In this document: positions 54,263-64,000 of the stretch, piece by piece
Position numbering within the stretch: position 1 is the stretch's first letter
Layout: each line of letters starts with the position of its first letter
Source: Candidatus Latescibacterota bacterium
GTDB taxonomy: Bacteria > Latescibacterota > UBA2968
Direction of reading: 5' to 3'
NCBI GenBank assembly: GCA_965198115.1
Contig: OZ240241.1
Coordinates: 3,200,001-3,264,000 of the forward strand
DNA: 64,000 nucleotides
Translations under genes and position numbers: made by a program
The notes under the pieces: generated by a model
The model's database searches: none
The model's input: only the letters and a program-made list of their open reading frames with translations
What the model was told of the DNA's origin: nothing

Positions 54263-55027
54263 ATGAAACTAGGTTTCGTGACCTACCAAATCGGCAAGGA
54301 TATGGACGTCCCCACGATCATCGACGTCTGCCAGAAGACGGGTTTCCAGGGCGTTGAACTCCGAACGACGCACGCCCACGGCGTCGAATCCACACTCTCT
54401 GCCGAGGAACGACAAAAGGTGCGCAAGCAATTCGAAGACGGGGGCGTCGAAATCGCGGGGATCGGATCCGCCTTCGAGTACCACGCACTCGAAGAAGATT
54501 TGGTGAAAGAGAATATCGCGGGCACGATCGAATCGGCAAAGCTCGCCGCCGACCTCGGCTGCCCGGGCGTGAAGGTCAGACCGAACGGGCTACAGGTCGA
54601 CAACGGGGTACCCGAGGAGAAGACGCTCGAGCAGATCGGTCTCTCGATCCGCGAATGCGGGCAGGCGGCCGCAGACCTGGGTGTCGCCATTCGTGTTGAG
54701 GTCCACGGTCGTGAGACCAGCCGCCCGGACCGAATGCGGGCCATTATGGATCACGCCGACCACGACAACGTTCACATCTGCTGGAACTCCAACTTCAACG
54801 AAGTCGTCGACGGCACGATCGATGAAGCCTGGAATCTCCTCGGCCACCTGATCGGCCTCGTCCACATCACCGAGCTCTGGAAACCGGAGTATCCCTGGGC
54901 CGACTTATTCGCCCGCCTCGCGGCATCGGGCTACGAAGGATACACGCTCGCCGAGATCCCCCCCAACGACGACCCTGAGCGGGTCCTTCATTATTACAAG
55001 GCGCTATGGGACGCCTATCAACCTTAG
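54263..55027 (+). CDS. Sugar phosphate isomerase/epimerase (xylose isomerase-like TIM barrel)
   Basis: GVELRTTHAHGVE, VEVHG, CWNSN, VHI, LAE. Confidence 0.85.
   Translation: MKLGFVTYQIGKDMDVPTIIDVCQKTGFQGVELRTTHAHGVESTLSAEERQKVRKQFEDGGVEIAGIGSAFEYHALEEDLVKENIAGTIESAKLAADLGCPGVKVRPNGLQVDNGVPEEKTLEQIGLSIRECGQAAADLGVAIRVEVHGRETSRPDRMRAIMDHADHDNVHICWNSNFNEVVDGTIDEAWNLLGHLIGLVHITELWKPEYPWADLFARLAASGYEGYTLAEIPPNDDPERVLHYYKALWDAYQP
54870..55027 (+). repeat. Direct repeat copy 1 (3' end of the isomerase gene)
   Basis: 158 bp, 12 mismatches against 57627-57784 by manual alignment. Confidence 0.9.
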
Positions 55028-55098
55028 AGCCGATTGGGAAATCAGGGTCATAGGAAATTGATTAATTCCACATTTCCTATCCGCATAGTGCGCTGCTC
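55027..55098. mobile_element. 72-bp MITE-like element or fused IS-end remnant
   Basis: GAGC...GCTC termini, TTA on both sides, internal IR ATAGGAAAT/ATTTCCTAT. Confidence 0.5.
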
Positions 55099-55101
55099 TT
55101 A

Positions 55102-56394
55102 GGGTTCGGAATAAATAAACGGTCGATCTCAATGTTGAGCCATTGGCCGGATCGTGTAGTTCCAGTCGCCGTGGAAATCGTGCGGAGTGAGATCGATTTG
55201 GGTCATCTGTTCATCGGTCACCTTGACCCCGTTAGGGTAGGGTCGCTTGTCGATCTCGGAGCGTACTCGGAGACCGGCTTGAGTGGTCGTTCCGGCAATG
55301 AGATTCACGGTTGCAGCCAGGCTGACCAGGGGCTTGCCTCGCCAGTTCATAGCGATGAAGGAGAACAGGCGATGTTCGATCTTGTTCCACTTACTAGTGC
55401 CAGGAGGGTAGTGGCATACGGTGATCGTCAGGCCAGTGCGATTCGCAAAGCGCTGCAGCTCCCACTTCCACAGCCGCGTCTTGGCGCCGTTGCTGCCGCC
55501 TGCGTCCGCCGTGATTAGCAGATGCGTCGAAGTGCCGTAGGCGGGCCGTCCCATGTTCTTCCACCAACTTCGGATCGCATTCACGGCGAAGCTGGCCGTG
55601 TCGTGATCGATACCGACACTTACCCAGCCTTCATCACGGCTCAGATCATACACTCCATAAGGGATCGCCTTGCCCTGAGCAGGCACTATGAAATCGTGTA
55701 CCTTCACACGCTCCGGGTCTCCCTTGGGTCGCCATTCTCGGCCAGGATTCTTGAAGTCGCCGATCAACTCTTTCTTCTTGGTGTCCACCGAGATAACGGG
55801 AAGGCCCTGCTGCTGCTGCTGGCTAATCCGATCATCGAGGTAAACGAACTGAGCGTCCCGATCCGGGTGTGCAGATCCCTCCCTTGTCTTCCGATTCGCC
55901 TGCAGCGTGTAATCGTGTTCGTGCAGGAGATTGGCAACGATCCTGGGGCTCACCGAATGCCCCATCGCTTGCAACTCGGCGGCCAGTTTGCGAGTGCTCT
56001 TCGATGTCCATCTCAGAGGATTGTCGTCAGGCGACCCCGCAGTCGTTGGCTCGACCAGATCATTCAGGTCCTGCCACAGCGTCGGGTCCGTGTCGGCCTT
56101 CCGCTTACGACCGCCGCCTGGACGCCGGATGCGAGCCGGGTCCAAAGGTTCGTCCGACCTCAACTCCTGAATGCCACGAAAGATCCGCTCTCTGGACATT
56201 CCTGTCGCCAGAGCCACAATCGCGATCCCACCGTGACCCAACGCTTCGGCTTCCGTGGCGGCCCACAGACGACGCGTGCGTTCCGTCAGCACCGGAGCCA
56301 AGGCTTCATACTTCGTTCGGAGAGTTTCGACGTCCACACTCCGAGCGTAAGATCATTACCTTGAAAAGTGCAGCACTTATTTCGTGGCAAACCC
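55102..56394 (-). mobile_element. ISAzo13-family IS copy 2 (1293 bp)
   Basis: Same ends as copy 1; TTA flanks. Confidence 0.95.
55129..56337 (-). CDS. ISAzo13 transposase
   Basis: 402 aa, one substitution (Q to R) relative to the other copies. Confidence 0.95.
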   Translation of the reverse strand: MDVETLRTKYEALAPVLTERTRRLWAATEAEALGHGGIAIVALATGMSRERIFRGIQELRSDEPLDPARIRRPGGGRKRKADTDPTLWQDLNDLVEPTTAGSPDDNPLRWTSKSTRKLAAELQAMGHSVSPRIVANLLHEHDYTLQANRKTREGSAHPDRDAQFVYLDDRISQQQQQGLPVISVDTKKKELIGDFKNPGREWRPKGDPERVKVHDFIVPAQGKAIPYGVYDLSRDEGWVSVGIDHDTASFAVNAIRSWWKNMGRPAYGTSTHLLITADAGGSNGAKTRLWKWELQRFANRTGLTITVCHYPPGTSKWNKIEHRLFSFIAMNWRGKPLVSLAATVNLIAGTTTQAGLRVRSEIDKRPYPNGVKVTDEQMTQIDLTPHDFHGDWNYTIRPMAQH

Positions 56395-56567
56395 TTAGTC
56401 ACTCTCCAACGAATTCATCAGGCAACCCGGCAGGCCACCTCTCGATCCGAGGGTTGTAAATCGGCTACCATCATACACGGACACGCCACCGGTGCGTTTG
56501 CCGAACCAAAGGTAGGCCTTAGTGCTTTCCGTGGTGGCAAAAACCGTAGTGTCCGAGAGTGGACTGA

Positions 56568-57317
56568 ATGGCTAAACGAAAGAAAGGGACCAAGCGGCGA
56601 CTCGCCGATCTCTACATCGTGGGGATCGGCATTCACGGACGTCGTCACCTTACCTGGGAAGCTGAGAACGCACTCCGCGAAAGCCGCATTGTTCTGGATG
56701 AGACCGGTCAGATTGAGATGACGAAGGAACTCAATCCCAACACAGTCGATATGGCACCTCTCTATTGGACGGGTGAAGAGAGAGAGGTCGTCTACGAGCG
56801 ACTCGTAAAGAGAGCGCTTGACGAAATTGAGATCGGGCCGGGTGTCGCAGTGGTCACCTATGGGCACCCGCTCTTTTTCGACGATATCAACCACCAGCTA
56901 CTTCGACGCTGTCGAAGACGCAAGCTTGACTGTGTCATCGTCCCGGGTATTTCGTGCCTGGATACACTGAGCGTCGATCTCGAGATCGACTACGGCGATG
57001 GCCTACAGGTTTACGAAGCGACGGACCTCGTAGATAACGGTTATCCACTCAACCCCCACGTGCACACACTCATCCTTCAGCTGGGGGAATTCAATCACTC
57101 AGAGACGTCCGATACCCTGGACCCGGCTCCGGGACGTTTGAAAAAATTGGTCGCTTTTCTTCGCAAGACCTATCGGAGAGACCAGAAAGTGGTGATCTGC
57201 TACAGCAATGACGGCTCGGAGGGCTTGTTCCTGAAGACCAGGCTCCATCGGCTGGACAGCCATTGGAGAAAGATCTTCCCGGGGACGACTCTGTATGTCC
57301 CACCTGCGGAGATTTGA
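56568..57317 (+). CDS. Borosin-type (OphMA/SonM-like) SAM-dependent methyltransferase, tetrapyrrole-methylase fold
   Basis: LYIVGIGI...HLT, Y-x5-R-x3-Y (LYWTGEEREVVY), YGHP, PGISCLD, YEAT, TLYVPP. Confidence 0.75.
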   Translation: MAKRKKGTKRRLADLYIVGIGIHGRRHLTWEAENALRESRIVLDETGQIEMTKELNPNTVDMAPLYWTGEEREVVYERLVKRALDEIEIGPGVAVVTYGHPLFFDDINHQLLRRCRRRKLDCVIVPGISCLDTLSVDLEIDYGDGLQVYEATDLVDNGYPLNPHVHTLILQLGEFNHSETSDTLDPAPGRLKKLVAFLRKTYRRDQKVVICYSNDGSEGLFLKTRLHRLDSHWRKIFPGTTLYVPPAEI

Positions 57318-57626
57318 ACCACCCTTGGGTCTGGCCAAATCCCGCCACACGCCTCAGACGTCAGCAACCCACAATCTTCCCGGGTCATGAAAACGCGTTC
57401 GACTCTCAGCCTGCTCGGCCTCCCACTCATCTTCCTTGCTTCCACATACGCCCCCCTCGATCTGACGCAAGCCGATCGCATCCTCGTCGCCGTTGCCCTC
57501 ACCGCCGCGATGCTGTGGACGCTCGAACCGGCGACGACCCGGGCGCCTGGGGGTCGCAGAACGAGCAGGACACGCGCCCCCTCGCTCCGTTCGCCGAAAT
57601 CCCGATGGTCGAGCCCGATCAGCTGG

Positions 57627-57784
57627 CCGAGCTCTGGAAACCGGAGTATCCCTGGGCCGACTTATTCGCCCGCCTCGCGGCATCGGGCTACGAAGGAGAC
57701 ACCCTCGCCGAGATCCCCCCTAACGACGATCCCGAGCGGGTCCTGCACTACTACAAGGCGCTCTGGAACGCGTATCAACCGTAG
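57627..57784 (+). pseudogene. Orphan duplicated 3' end of the isomerase gene (direct repeat copy 2)
   Basis: Encodes ELWKPEYPWADLFARLAASGYEG...YYKALWNAYQP-stop. Confidence 0.85.
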
Positions 57785-57822
57785 ACATCGGGGAATGGGG
57801 GAATGACATAGAACCATCCACC

Positions 57823-58341
57823 CTATGATTCCGCCATTCCTCGATGCTCTGCTTCCTCTTCTACTGACGGGCCGGCGTTCGCCTCGGGCGTCTCCGCCAT
57901 AACAGTGTCGGAGACCTGAGTCTGTAGATCACCCATTGCCGGTGAGGGCGTGAGATCCGGAACGCCGGGCACGACTCGACGTATTTCCTCCATCAACCGC
58001 AGTGGTTCGAAGGGTTTCGCCAGGATCCCACGGACGCCCAATCCCAAGAGTTGTTTGGCCACCACATCCGAGACGAATCCGGACACCACAATGATCGGCA
58101 GCATCAGTCGCCTTCGCTGAAGTGCTTCCAACAGATCGATACCGCTCGGCCCAATCATATGGATGTCGAGCAGCATCAACCCGACCTCCTCTTTCTCGAG
58201 CACGTCGATAGCCTTCACCGCGCTCGGCGCTTGTAGTGGATGATATCCAGCTGCACGCAGAATCTTCGACAAAAGTGTACGAACCTGACGGTCATCGTCT
58301 ACGATCAAGATTCGTCGTTGGCTCTCCGTGTATCTGGGCAT
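57823..58341 (-). CDS. Response regulator (REC + acidic tail)
   Basis: ILIVDDD, LLDIHM, VSG, KPF. Confidence 0.85.
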   Translation of the reverse strand: MPRYTESQRRILIVDDDRQVRTLLSKILRAAGYHPLQAPSAVKAIDVLEKEEVGLMLLDIHMIGPSGIDLLEALQRRRLMLPIIVVSGFVSDVVAKQLLGLGVRGILAKPFEPLRLMEEIRRVVPGVPDLTPSPAMGDLQTQVSDTVMAETPEANAGPSVEEEAEHRGMAES

Positions 58342-58370: not shown

Positions 58371-59639
58371 TCAGGCTCCAAGTTCCGACAGAAAGGCATC
58401 CGCCTTTTCGAGATCCTGCCTGGCAGTCTGGATGATGCCATCCAGGAACCTGCCACCGAGGGCAAAGCGTTTAACCACGGACTCGTCAATCTCCGACACC
58501 AGGTCTTCCTGCTTCTCCTCGACACTTAATCGATGGCACAGCACGTCCGCGAGGTGGATTAAACACACCATTCGTTGGTATCGACAGGTTCGCCAAGGCT
58601 CGTGGTGGAACAGGATGGCGTCCTGAACCGCTTCAGGGAGTTTCCATTCCCCGGCCAGGTGCCCACCCACGTCGGAATGAGTTAAACCCAGCACATCGGA
58701 TTCGTGTCTGGCGATCGTTCTTCGGTCGTCACCAACCTTCTCGAGAACCGGTTTGTAGTAGTATCCAAAGTATTGACCCAGAACGATCTGGCCGATGTCG
58801 TGGAGCATCCCGGCCAGGTAAGCCGACTCGCTCTCCATCTGAAGAAGCTTAGCGAGACTTCGAGCCACAAACGCTGTTCCAACCGAGTGCCTCCAGAACT
58901 CGCTGGCGTCAAAGGACGTCCCACTGTCGCTCTTGCCCAGACCTTCGATCACCTGAATCGACGCGACCAGGTTGGCGATTTCCTGCAAGCCGAGTAGAGT
59001 CACTGCGAGTTTGAGTGAGTCGATTCGGTTTCGAAAACCGAAGCAGGTGGAGTTGGCCAGTTTGAAGACCGTCGCAAGAAGACCTGGGTCCAGCTGAATG
59101 CGTTCGGCGATCTCGTCGCAGGACGCACCCTGTCGGGACAGTGACGTGATATCCACATAGGTGGATGGGAGCGTCGGCAATCCTTCGATCTCGCGTACAC
59201 GCTGAATCACGCTCGCCTCGATGTCATCCTTGGTCGCGATGGCACCGGACGTCAACACGCTGTGGACCCTCTCCTGCAATACCTCCTGCCCAAAGGGCTT
59301 GGCGAGGTAGGACTGTGCGCCTGCGTTCCGTGCCTTGACCACGCCTTCCTCCGATGGCTTGGCCGCTGTCAGAATCACAGGAATGTCGTTGTACTTCGGG
59401 CTGAGACCCACGAGTTCCGTCAACCGGAGACCATCGCCCGGAACGTCGATGTCGGCGATGATCGCGTGAGGGGGAGTCTGCCGAAGTCGATCCACCGCCG
59501 TGAGTGTATCCGTCGCTACATCTGGCACGTAGGTCTCCGATAGCATATCGGAGATCACCTGGCCGAAGCGGGGTCGGTCGACGACCAGGATCCGTTTCTT
59601 GTCGAACGTGCGCTGGGTTCGAGATCCAATTGCGACCAT
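58371..59639 (-). CDS. REC + HDOD domain signalling protein
   Basis: REC (IIADID, KPF); LPTLP, DPGL, LANS, FWRHS, AGMLHDIG, FHHEP. Confidence 0.9.
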   Translation of the reverse strand: MVAIGSRTQRTFDKKRILVVDRPRFGQVISDMLSETYVPDVATDTLTAVDRLRQTPPHAIIADIDVPGDGLRLTELVGLSPKYNDIPVILTAAKPSEEGVVKARNAGAQSYLAKPFGQEVLQERVHSVLTSGAIATKDDIEASVIQRVREIEGLPTLPSTYVDITSLSRQGASCDEIAERIQLDPGLLATVFKLANSTCFGFRNRIDSLKLAVTLLGLQEIANLVASIQVIEGLGKSDSGTSFDASEFWRHSVGTAFVARSLAKLLQMESESAYLAGMLHDIGQIVLGQYFGYYYKPVLEKVGDDRRTIARHESDVLGLTHSDVGGHLAGEWKLPEAVQDAILFHHEPWRTCRYQRMVCLIHLADVLCHRLSVEEKQEDLVSEIDESVVKRFALGGRFLDGIIQTARQDLEKADAFLSELGA

Positions 59640-59989
59640 ACGATCACTCCACACCGGAACACGTCTTGAAAGGATTCGGGAAATCTGGGGGAAGGCTGAT
59701 GAACAGCAGTCGAACTGCGGAGGTGTGTTTGCAACTCGTGTGCCTGTGACAACAACGGGACACAAGCCGAGCAACGAGAGGGGGTTACTGCGATTGGTCG
59801 CTGAGATGGATCAGGCGTGTAGAATCAGAATCTGGTTCACTCCGATAGATCGATTTGTGACAGGCATCCAGAGCCTTATGAGGCGCGGTTTCCGGTTCAG
59901 CGGACTGGAACGAAATGATCCTGACCTATTGGAAAAGAGGCATTCGAGGATGTCATTCGGAAAGAATCTTGACCACTTACCGGCACTAA

Positions 59990-61280
59990 GGGTTTGCCAC
60001 GAAATAAGTGCTGCACTTTTCAAGGTAATGATCTTACGCTCGGAGTGTGGACGTCGAAACTCTCCGAACGAAGTATGAAGCCTTGGCTCCGGTGCTGACG
60101 GAACGCACGCGTCGTCTGTGGGCCGCCACGGAAGCCGAAGCGTTGGGTCACGGTGGGATCGCGATTGTGGCTCTGGCGACAGGAATGTCCAGAGAGCGGA
60201 TCTTTCGTGGCATTCAGGAGTTGAGGTCGGACGAACCTTTGGACCCGGCTCGCATCCGGCGTCCAGGCGGCGGTCGTAAGCGGAAGGCCGACACGGACCC
60301 GACGCTGTGGCAGGACCTGAATGATCTGGTCGAGCCAACGACTGCGGGGTCGCCTGACGACAATCCTCTGAGATGGACATCGAAGAGCACTCGCAAACTG
60401 GCCGCCGAGTTGCAAGCGATGGGGCATTCGGTGAGCCCCAGGATCGTTGCCAATCTCCTGCACGAACACGATTACACGCTGCAGGCGAATCGGAAGACAA
60501 GGGAGGGATCTGCACACCCGGATCGGGACGCTCAGTTCGTTTACCTCGATGATCGGATTAGCCAGCAGCAGCAGCAGGGCCTTCCCGTTATCTCGGTGGA
60601 CACCAAGAAGAAAGAGTTGATCGGCGACTTCAAGAATCCTGGCCGAGAATGGCGACCCAAGGGAGACCCGGAGCGTGTGAAGGTACACGATTTCATAGTG
60701 CCTGCTCAGGGCAAGGCGATCCCTTATGGAGTGTATGATCTGAGCCGTGATGAAGGCTGGGTAAGTGTCGGTATCGATCACGACACGGCCAGCTTCGCCG
60801 TGAATGCGATCCGAAGTTGGTGGAAGAACATGGGACGGCCCGCCTACGGCACTTCGACGCATCTGCTAATCACGGCGGACGCAGGCGGCAGCAACGGCGC
60901 CAAGACGCGGCTGTGGAAGTGGGAGCTGCAGCGCTTTGCGAATCGCACTGGCCTGACGATCACCGTATGCCACTACCCTCCTGGCACTAGTAAGTGGAAC
61001 AAGATCGAACATCGCCTGTTCTCCTTCATCGCTATGAACTGGCAAGGCAAGCCCCTGGTCAGCCTGGCTGCAACCGTGAATCTCATTGCCGGAACGACCA
61101 CTCAAGCCGGTCTCCGAGTACGCTCCGAGATCGACAAGCGACCCTACCCTAACGGGGTCAAGGTGACCGATGAACAGATGACCCAAATCGATCTCACTCC
61201 GCACGATTTCCACGGCGACTGGAACTACACGATCCGGCCAATGGCTCAACATTGAGATCGACCTTATTTATTCCGAACCC
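59990..61280 (+). mobile_element. ISAzo13-family IS copy 3
   Basis: Same ends; flanks TAA and TTA; abuts IS630 copy C. Confidence 0.95.
60047..61255 (+). CDS. ISAzo13 transposase
   Basis: Protein identical to 4327-5535. Confidence 0.95.
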   Translation: MDVETLRTKYEALAPVLTERTRRLWAATEAEALGHGGIAIVALATGMSRERIFRGIQELRSDEPLDPARIRRPGGGRKRKADTDPTLWQDLNDLVEPTTAGSPDDNPLRWTSKSTRKLAAELQAMGHSVSPRIVANLLHEHDYTLQANRKTREGSAHPDRDAQFVYLDDRISQQQQQGLPVISVDTKKKELIGDFKNPGREWRPKGDPERVKVHDFIVPAQGKAIPYGVYDLSRDEGWVSVGIDHDTASFAVNAIRSWWKNMGRPAYGTSTHLLITADAGGSNGAKTRLWKWELQRFANRTGLTITVCHYPPGTSKWNKIEHRLFSFIAMNWQGKPLVSLAATVNLIAGTTTQAGLRVRSEIDKRPYPNGVKVTDEQMTQIDLTPHDFHGDWNYTIRPMAQH

Positions 61281-62295
61281 TTAGTACTCCTGTTCGCAAA
61301 TACGGTGACGTATTCTAAGCAGACTTTGCCAAGGGCGTATCGTAGAACCTGAGTTTGTCGATCATCTCCGCGAGATCTGTTCGTGTGAACTTCCATTTGA
61401 AGGGTGTGGCGATACGTCCGTAGCGTTCCTGAAAACCGAGGATTCTTGCCTCAAGCTCTTCGAGCGATGCAAATTCGATAGGTGTCAGAGCCTTGCGTTT
61501 GAGGATCGAGAAGTAGATCTCGATCTGATTGAGCCAGCTTGCGTGGATCGGAAGGTGAACGGGGTGGATGTTTGGCCACTTCCCCTGGATACGGTCGATG
61601 CATGTTTGCCCTCGGTGCGAGGAGCCATTATCCACGATGAGGTAGACTTTCTTTGCCGAGCAATAGGGTTTCCGGCTCATGATCAGGCTCAGGAGCCGGT
61701 TGAAGGGCTCGATACCCGAAGAAGACTCACAGAGACCGAAGATTCGACCATTGTGCACGTCGAGAGCAGCCAGATAGGCCAGGGCTCCTTTCCGCTCGTA
61801 TTCGTGTTTCAACGCGTGCCGCTCTGTTCGAGGCTGGCGGTAGGGTAACGTGCTTGCGAGCTCGTGCTTGAATACTGGTCTTTTCGTCGGCAGAAAGTAC
61901 ATATTCCCTCGGCCCTAAAGGCTTTCCTTGCCATTGGCGGTGATACAGATCAAGGACTCTACCTGCTTTGGTTTGGAAGTCCGGGTCCCGTGGGAAAATC
62001 CAGGAGCGATGATACCAAGGACGAATCGCGTCCTCGTTCAACCAGCGCCAGACAGTGGCGCCGCTGATCTTGGCAACGAAGCCCCTTTGCACTGCCTCGG
62101 CGGCAATCTCGGAACAGCTGAACCGCGAGAGCGGTATCCCGCTCTCGCTCGGTAGTTCACACGCCAGCGCCTTGATCTGAACGACCACCTGAGGGGGGAA
62201 AACCGGGCGGGCGCCCGGGACGAGATCTATCTTCGAGTCCCGAAAGACGCTCTTCGAAAAAGCGCTTACGCCATTTGCTTACGATCGGACGCGGG

Positions 62296-63682
62296 GGTCA
62301 AGTCCCATAGTCAGTTGAAAACTCATCGGGCCCCGTAGTTTGGTCAGGCTCTCTTTTGAGCATTCTGTTCGTTGTCGAGATTCAGATCTTTGTTCAGTGC
62401 TTGCCTGAGTAGGGGAAGATGTTTGTATCCGCTCACGCGTCGCAGGCGAGGTTCGATGTCGAGGAGTGCGGCAGCCACCCATCTGTGTCTCTGGGGAGAG
62501 TTGTTCCAGCGTCTGACCTTCCGAGTGAGCTCGCCGGTCCTGCTGTTGAGGGCTTCGATGCAGTTGGTGGTTCGGAAGCTTCGTTTCAGGAATGGGAGCA
62601 TACCCAGCCGGTGGAGGGTCAGGGTTTCCTCCAGGCCTTCCTCGAGGCTCGTTACGGCAGACTGATTCATCAGCTTCAGTTCGGGTTTAAGTGATTCGAG
62701 TGCGGCCTTTGCCTCCTCGTAGGTGTCGCAGTCATAGGCTTTCTGGAGCTTCCGTCGAACTCTTGGACGTTCCCTCTCCGGGAGATAGCTGACGACATTC
62801 TCGCGCTTGTGCCACTGACAGCGATGAACGCGCACATACCCTTTGAGGGCTTTGGTGACAGCACTGCGGAGTCCCTTTGAGCCGTCAAGCACAACGAGAA
62901 GGCCCTGGTCGTAGCACAGGCCTCTCCGGATGAGGTCCTGGATCAGCTGGCGGCAGATCCGTTCGTTCTCCGTCGCCGATTCGACGAAGCCCAGGGGGAT
63001 CTTCTGGCCGTCCATCGTGACCCCCGGAGCGATCACGATCTCTTCGTCGGCAAAGCTCTTTCCGTCAATGAACAGGGTCACGAAGCCGTAGTCGTCGAGG
63101 GGACGCTCCTGGAACTGCTTCAGCTTCTTCGCGGTGGCTTTGATGAACCGCCGCGAGACGGAGGACGCTGAGATACCAAACGCTTCTGGAACCGATTCGG
63201 CACAGGCCTTGTAGTTGCGGCACGAGATCCCCTTGAGAACACGAAGCAACAGCCCCTCGTCCGTCTTCTTGGGCGTCTGTAGAGCCCGGTATGCAGCCAG
63301 GGAAACCTCTGCGTCGGCCTCGACGTCGCGCACCCGGGGAACGTCTAACGGGAGCTTCTGGCCATCAGATACACGGATCCCTTCTGGCTTCCCCACCGAC
63401 GATGCGCCTGCTCCGAACCTTTGCGCGCATACCGAACGCCTGCGAGCTGCTCGACCTCCTGCTGGAGGAGGTCTGCCACTGCCTCCAGACCCAACGGGAT
63501 CAACGCCTGGATCACCGACAAACGCGTCTCCAAATCGATGACATCGCCCTCAACCTTGACTTCACCATCGCCTACAAATAGCTTCTCCATCTGGGCTCCT
63601 TTCTTACGGGTATACGCTCCTACACGTCTACCCAACGTAAGTTTGGAGCCCTCTAAGTTTCAACTACGATAGGCACAACACC
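62296..63682 (-). mobile_element. IS256-family IS, full length (1387 bp)
   Basis: Same ends as 11063-12011; 8-bp TSD GACGCGGG. Confidence 0.95.
62344..63590 (-). CDS. IS256 transposase, 1-nt deletion near 63361
   Basis: FIDG, LDGSKG, RCQWHK, RTTNCIE; copy 1 has GGTCCATC where this copy has GGCCATC. Confidence 0.8.
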
Positions 63683-64000
63683 GACGCGGGACATCCAACC
63701 GTTGGGCGATAATCTTGTTGGATAATCCCTCGGCGGCGAGAAGCACGATTTTCGATCGGATCACTTGATAATACGGTAACGTATATTGTCCAGCCATTCG
63801 CTCGACGAGGTCGACCCGTTCCTTCTCAGACAGTAGCACCACATAAGGCGAACGTCTTGGCATTGTTCTCCTCCTTTTGAAGGAGAACATAAGCTACAAA
63901 TAATGTTCAGAACATACGTAATAATATTTATGAACCCATGCACTAAGCCTCGTCCTATCCCCAAAACCTCAGTGATCTCAGTGCCTGCCTGCCGGAGGAG

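Follow-up and report, generated by a model that had tools for sequence, protein, structure and literature searches.

In the accessible text of the borosin literature, the characterised backbone N-methyltransferases (NMTs) act on dedicated precursors. In SonM/SonA, the type IV system of Shewanella oneidensis (PDB 7LTC; PMC8429565), a single-domain NMT of about 250–260 aa works with a separate precursor bearing a borosin-binding domain (BBD). Residues Y58, R67, Y71, Y93, F99 and Q167 of SonM have been assigned roles in peptide binding, in SAM binding and in the locks, and the R67A variant is inactive (PMC8429565). SonM slightly methylates a core peptide even without its BBD (PMC11751858). In type V the BBD is fused to the enzyme, RceM, and the precursor RceA is a multi-core peptide without BBD, composed of near-identical repeats in which an acidic residue is followed by Val or Ile and which are each methylated once (Imani et al., bioRxiv 10.1101/2021.12.24.474128). 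The same preprint describes types IV–X and a divergent cluster of 20 members, and notes that GGDEF genes are frequently close by. For 733 NMTs, Lee et al. (bioRxiv 10.1101/2024.01.09.574750) record no precursor identified by RODEO, and they also describe BBD-less clusters of Legionellales; orphan status is therefore not new.

Here we analyzed a window of 64,000 bp, the whole stretch under study, from a Candidatus Latescibacterota genome (G000) consisting of one contig of 8.4 Mb with 100% completeness. It contains the gene of a stand-alone enzyme (Table 1) that resembles SonM in its single-domain organization and is 26–27% identical to it. In contrast to SonM/SonA, a BBD-bearing precursor is absent beside this gene and in all 14 loci of its clade. 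The clade also has YGHPxxFDD and DTLSxD instead of YGHPGVF and DCLFAD-type motifs, a variable Arg, and Leu or Phe at the position of SonM W166. The multi-core peptides found beside some relatives are similar to RceA in their near-identical repeats, in the acidic residue followed by Val or Ile and in the lack of a BBD. Unlike in the RceM system, as far as it is described in the accessible text, the repeats are proline-rich and contain Lys, and the BBD is on neither partner, since the clade enzymes stop directly behind their catalytic domain. With the Legionellales borosins the clade shares the BBD-free and orphan categories; the one tested Legionella plasmid NMT (L049) falls outside it.

The enzyme fits none of the borosin architectures of types 0–X. 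Types I–III, V–VIII and 0 have a BBD fused to the NMT, and in our 249-aa protein the NMT fold takes up residues 13–249; types IX and X have a duplicated NMT or a TPR-TM-GGDEF fusion, and ours is a single domain. Type IV implies a separate BBD precursor, and none was adjacent in the window or in the 14 clade loci, or credible genome-wide with profiles of moderate sensitivity. Neither the clade nor the [D/E]IKxP peptide architecture described below was found in the accessible text of Lee et al., Imani et al., PMC8429565, PMC11751858 and PMC11285071 or among literature listings on borosins and backbone methylation; supplementary orphan lists and Cho et al. (2022) may include clade members.

Peptide drugs create a demand for backbone N-methylation. 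In the well-studied borosin enzymes, efficient turnover depends on a binding domain that is either fused or tethered. A compact enzyme of 245 aa together with a nearly leaderless repeat peptide, as in loci L002, L003 and L006, is a candidate for BBD-free recognition and Arg-free catalysis, and the clade offers a handle on the role of orphan borosin methyltransferases. The clade and these enzyme–peptide pairs are of more value than the present copy, which in its genome is most likely a lone passenger.

Table 1. Features of the segment around the methyltransferase gene (positions within the window)
Feature	Position	Strand	Remarks
AP_endonuc_2 (TIM barrel) gene	54263–55027	+	conserved; left edge of the variable region
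ISAzo13 copy (left)	55102–56394	−	transposase 55129–56337; inserted some 170 nt before the enzyme gene; TTA on both sides; context only
Borosin-type N-methyltransferase ORF	56568–57317	+	ATG start, 249 aa, intact
Rearrangement scar	57387–57785	+	mosaic of three gene pieces; not a precursor
Scar, first part	57450–57531		5' fragment of the transporter gene that lies downstream
Scar, second part	57530–57617		internal IorA-like piece
Scar, third part	57627–57785		3' end of the AP_endonuc_2 gene, 92% identical to 54870–55028
Single REC-domain protein	57823–58341	−	neighbour, judged unrelated
REC-HDOD protein	58371–59774	−	several paralogues in the source genome and relatives; judged unrelated
ISAzo13 copy (right)	59985–61284	+	transposase 60047–61255

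Identity of the enzyme

All motifs named in the preliminary description are present at their places in the open reading frame: G19-I-G-I22, H27-L-T, Y66-x5-R72-x3-Y76, Y98-G-H-P, P126-G-I-S, E150-A-T and T241-L-Y-V-P-P. The NMT fold covers residues 13–249, so that the protein ends right after the methyltransferase domain, as had been proposed. In a 49-sequence alignment the TLYxPP motif lies within about 10 columns of the C-terminus in nearly all displayed rows. In addition, positions 56400–57502 were matched without any difference or indel by contigs of two public runs (X1 and X2), which are probably from the source sample. Since the homologues stop at the same motif and these contigs are identical, the stop codon is real and a C-terminal extension is truly absent.

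Family models placed the protein only broadly. Its sole Pfam match was TP_methylase (E 6e-19), and the best NCBIfam model, YabN (NF052436), gave 56 bits (E 3e-15) at a cut-off of 525 bits, with the MazG part absent. Atlas returned generic TP_methylase clusters only, PADLOC had no match for the enzyme, and a scan for promoters and terminators stayed at chance level. The 25 best PDB sequence matches were SonM, OphMA, dbOphMA and MroMA, with E 7e-16 to 8e-12; no tetrapyrrole methylase did better than E 0.013. A profile of 49 clade members matched borosin enzymes over their full length (E 1e-29 to 1e-35), while CobF, CbiF, CobA, RsmI and Dph5 were matched over half the length or less with E of at least 1e-5. 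The AlphaFold model (pLDDT 94) had a TM score of 0.87 to SonM; in structure comparison SonM reached Z 28.6 (rmsd 1.8 Å), with CysG following at Z 17.7.

In the PDB sequence alignment, Y66, R72, Y76, Y98, F104 and Q171 correspond to SonM Y58, R67, Y71, Y93, F99 and Q167. The Tyr/Arg/Tyr set, previously singled out as catalytic, is thus complete in our enzyme; in the clade this holds for the tyrosines (Y66 in 49 of 49 rows, Y76 in 48) and not for the Arg, which is kept in 19 of 49. R40, D105 and Q171 are likewise invariant, and Y98 is present in 47 of 49 rows. By eye, the enzyme has the YGHP motif, and the position of the second BorosinMT motif reads DTLSVD and not DCLFAD.

Phylogenetic trees included four YabN, five CysG, five RsmI and about 150 other borosin-like representatives beside the clade; SonM and OphMA were absent as rows, and YGHPGVF-type homologues stood in for them. 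FastTree (243 rows) placed the enzyme in a 67-row clade with a support of 98. With IQ-TREE (66 of the 243 rows), the 29 clade rows came out as a single branch (91), nested within a branch of 34 rows (97) and separate from YabN, CysG, RsmI and the YGHPGVF-type borosins. The whole borosin-like branch, with YabN outside, had a support of 80–88. The N-terminal domain of YabN, CysG/CobA and RsmI share the PF00590 fold and SAM-binding motifs with the enzyme, but they differ in their weaker, half-length matches and their separate branches in both trees, and the enzyme has no MazG domain.

PDB matches, profiles, modelled fold and trees all group the protein with borosin enzymes, and they support a borosin-type backbone N-methyltransferase fold and ancestry, with the corresponding catalysis predicted, as opposed to CysG, RsmI or YabN. 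The fold, the Tyr/Arg/Tyr/Tyr residues and the tree position are those of borosin NMTs. The identity originally suggested is supported at this level, including its separation from tetrapyrrole and rRNA methylases.

By analogy with SonM, SAM would be bound between the two domains in contact with Y98 and F104, and the peptide would lie extended in the cleft. Its backbone carbonyl groups would be bound there by Y66 and Y76, which would also stabilise the amide once it is deprotonated. The methyl group would then pass to the backbone amide nitrogen by an SN2 reaction. The invariant D105 might, more speculatively, contact the Lys of the peptide motif or stand in for the variable Arg. In the relatives with repeat peptides, one methyl per repeat may be added without BBD at the Ile, or at its neighbour, after the acidic residue, as in RceA.

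Surrounding segment and source genome

In four of the seven relatives compared, a transporter gene lies within about 1.3 kb behind the AP_endonuc_2 gene, and in both relatives with enough DNA (G001 and G029) an IorA-like gene comes next. In the source genome the AP_endonuc_2 and transporter genes are 9 kb apart, and the scar between the enzyme and the REC genes is made of pieces of these three genes; short contigs from public runs span its junctions. We infer that the segment arose by tandem duplication and deletions, the first spacer containing the enzyme and the second containing the REC and REC-HDOD genes and three IS. The enzyme and the REC genes would then be neighbours by accident, since they belong to different copies of the duplicated spacer with the scar between them.

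The second ISAzo13 copy is followed by a DDE_3 (IS630-like) and then a Mutator-family transposase. A composite ISAzo13 transposon, which would have target duplications at the outer ends of the pair only, is not needed to account for the segment. An inverted pair does not by itself demonstrate one, as near-full copies number 73 in this genome, and the TTA found on either side of the left copy rather speaks for an independent insertion. The flanks of the right copy are TAA/TTA; target flanks were scored for 16 of the 73 copies, and nine of them matched. The genome is generally rich in IS, with dozens of copies of the two further elements at 61280–63683.

The enzyme gene has a GC content of 54.6% against 59.1%, and among 1756 long frames its GC3 falls on the 14th percentile. 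It exists in one copy in its genome and was found in only this one of 168 genomes of the phylum and in none of 40 relatives. Both composition and distribution agree with the acquired segment proposed earlier, and we consider horizontal acquisition of the gene likely.

No precursor-like ORF adjoins the gene, in agreement with the first description. Two downstream frames of 173 and 139 aa were rejected as products of the scar. A precursor hidden under the IS was also dismissed: six-frame reading of each flank on its own gave no noteworthy peptide running from start to stop, and one proline-rich frame in the right flank opens behind a stop and lacks a start codon near its beginning.

The complete source genome gave no LigA match, and two custom BBD profiles, which recovered six of seven held-out sequences at E < 1 (three of them at 0.09–0.77) and are thus of moderate sensitivity, found no credible BBD genome-wide. 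Two weak matches were discarded on inspection: by eye, the one at 5843974 (E 0.13) is the C-terminal part of a dioxygenase-like protein, and the one at 3761503 (E 0.35–1.3) is a helix within a peptidase-like protein of 1400 aa. The genome also has no tandem [D/E]IKxP motif, its 19 matches to the loose single motif being chance-like, and no homologues of ten partner genes of the clade or of the cyclase-like partner described below. A genome-wide scan for short repeat peptides gave 71 frames; 60 of these were looked at, and each was a simple DNA repeat, an antisense frame or a domain repeat. A 47-aa Cys-rich peptide ending in DDILF is encoded at C1:51733–51945 of the genome. PF00590 had only two matches in the genome, and therefore no RsmI-like gene was found by this search.

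Relatives of the enzyme and their repeat peptides

The clade comprises about 50 stand-alone enzymes of 240–270 aa with the motif YGHPxxFDD. It was collected from 631 candidates, 55 of which passed; 45 are full-length, with 43–67% identity and lengths of 233–270 aa. No fusion of enzyme and core was found in longer proteins (two distant matches among 7995 scored, which is weak evidence), and viral contigs contained no clade member. Of the new split-borosin lineage postulated before, the distinct clade and its stand-alone architecture are supported; no BBD-bearing precursor was found beside its members, and orphan borosin enzymes are not rare.

Locus scans yielded six loci from GTDB and 19 from metagenomes, of which 14 distinct loci carry clade enzymes; L011, L012 and L016 were left out as near-copies of L013 and L003. 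One of the 14 (L015) has 69 nt of upstream DNA and is uninformative for precursors, which leaves 13. The contexts are unrelated to each other and come from several phyla. Proline-rich repeat peptides are encoded directly upstream, on the same strand, in three of the 14 loci (L002, L003 and L006). Their ORFs of 66, 190 and 90 aa contain 5, 18 and 6 [D/E]-[I/V]-K-x-[P/N] motifs, respectively, and have purine-rich leaders and no BBD. In nine of the 13 informative loci and in the window, no precursor or BBD gene was found within 0.55–8 kb of upstream DNA.

A DNA pattern for the tandem motif had 3, 17 and 4 matches in three of five genomes, all within the L002, L003 and L006 ORFs, compared with zero control matches; the other two genomes, both orphans (G043 and G044), had none. 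Among 251 genomes of the order, ten matched, eight of them once, and at least three matches were found only in G041 and G042, the only two with a clade enzyme; a control pattern matched once in 16 genomes. Since G041 and G042 are discovery genomes, this comparison measures specificity and is not an independent replication. When the L003 repeat peptide was used as query for homologues, it retrieved no sequence and missed even itself, so that this search is uninformative. BBD-less [D/E]IKxP repeat peptides are likely a candidate substrate class of some relatives.

The enzymes of L002, L003, L006 and L024 fall in one sub-branch (support 100) with about 45–56% identity to ours. This sub-branch has R72 in 0 of 13 members, K238 in 13 and R215 in 12. 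Because our enzyme is in a separate sub-branch with different residues near the active site, its substrate may differ from the repeat peptides. Just upstream of the L024 enzyme (L024:660–863) there is a 67-aa hydrophobic peptide rich in Gly and Val with a short proline-rich tail, possibly a membrane-anchored single-core substrate.

Downstream genes were compared as well. Three of the nearer relatives of our enzyme are directly followed by a co-oriented gene for a membrane protein (L010:2344–3834, L014:8690–10711, L017:2117–3652) consisting of a TM segment, an extracytoplasmic domain, a second TM segment and a cyclase-like domain, with an additional TIR in L014. Foldseek related it to class III nucleotidyl cyclases (E 2e-9; model pLDDT 72, three sequences). 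Pfam, NCBIfam (outside the TIR part) and PDB sequence searches had no match, and profile comparison with one cyclase sequence gave no support, so that the similarity comes from the fold search alone. SET-domain methyltransferase genes adjoin the enzyme in two unrelated loci (L008:1408–1887 and L013:2855–3271), and related multi-TM proteins of 215–220 aa from no known family are encoded directly downstream in L005 (8757–9422) and L018 (1396–2040). Other clade loci have SET, TIR or unknown membrane proteins as neighbours.

Alternative readings and more distant enzymes

We lean towards the view that the enzyme is a stand-alone, borosin-fold mobile orphan of a rare branch, acquired alone and with no cognate substrate in the source genome, where it is probably stranded or weakly promiscuous. 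That all orphans are stranded is hard to reconcile with the nine precursor-less clade loci, which keep intact active sites over long branches. It is conceivable, if rather unlikely, that the main line of the clade is a precursor-independent single-gene cassette that methylates backbone amides of folded host proteins or of co-transferred membrane signalling proteins, the repeat peptides being a specialisation of one sub-branch. The nine informative loci and the window without a peptide or BBD gene agree with this, as do the unrelated contexts in several phyla despite the invariant R40, Y66, D105 and Q171, the cyclase-like protein shared by L010, L014 and L017, the SET genes beside L008 and L013 and, weakly, the absence of fused forms. 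Against it, no target emerged; the partner genes vary by locus and none is present in the source genome; the characterised borosin enzymes act on dedicated precursors; and precursors may be distant, the two other orphan genomes having been searched with one motif. A broader proposal, to which we give an equally modest chance, is that such enzymes spread as single genes across phyla and modify amide nitrogens of ordinary host or partner proteins with an active site that relies on Asp and lacks the canonical Arg; one sub-branch would have recruited proline-rich repeat peptides with neither leader nor BBD. If true, backbone N-methylation would be a general protein modification beyond a step of RiPP formation.

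A dedicated precursor elsewhere in the source genome, for example a short non-repetitive peptide or the 47-aa peptide with its DD(I/V)LF-type end, appears improbable to us. Lee et al. name a distal precursor as one explanation of orphan NMTs, and the L024 peptide, with its one proline-rich stretch, suggests that single-core substrates may exist; but the DDILF peptide is 3.2 Mb from the enzyme, the 19 loose matches are chance-like and, as the enzyme is unique within its phylum and its spacer was recently rearranged, a distal substrate would have had to arrive separately. Still less probable is a switch of the borosin fold to a non-peptide substrate, such as a small-molecule amide, a tetrapyrrole or RNA. 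Lee et al. allow that orphan NMTs may be non-borosin TP methylases, the enzyme branches outside the YGHPGVF-type enzymes with DTLSVD in place of DCLFAD, the Arg needed by SonM is absent in 30 of 49 members, and the nearest NCBIfam model is YabN, albeit far under its cut-off. However, the peptide-binding tyrosines are kept, the fold is 11 Z units nearer to SonM than to CysG, the repeat peptides go specifically with one sub-branch, and the YabN rows lie outside the borosin-like branch, if with modest support. The preliminary description had also tied the enzyme to signalling through the adjacent REC and REC-HDOD genes. These genes are indeed there, convergent to the enzyme and beyond the scar; all lie between two inverted ISAzo13 copies, the enzyme gene and the single-REC gene both have a lowish GC3, and Imani et al. 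report GGDEF domains in 56% of borosin clusters. One mobile signalling unit is nevertheless largely refuted, and we hold it for very improbable: a REC or HDOD homologue occurs in none of the 14 clade loci, the genes belong to different copies of the spacer, the left IS shows a target duplication of its own in a genome with 73 near-full ISAzo13 copies, and relatives that lack the enzyme often have REC-HDOD paralogues (nine of 15 searched in the family, the enzyme itself being in none of the 40 relatives).

Other borosin-like branches were observed in the course of the searches. Seventeen plasmid records encode proteins 26–34% identical to the enzyme. Many borosin-like representatives (P0076, P0088, P0092, P0094, P0104 and others) have a BBD-like segment N-terminal to the NMT, like type 0 borosins. 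A second distant group, with 30–33% identity, was found in L007 (7715–7978; Actinomycetota), L019, L020, L022, L023, L025 and L026. Its loci resemble type IV and contain a BBD-like precursor of 73–87 aa, which terminates in a hydrophobic core with IRM or LRM, together with a divergent cyclase-AAA-TPR gene.
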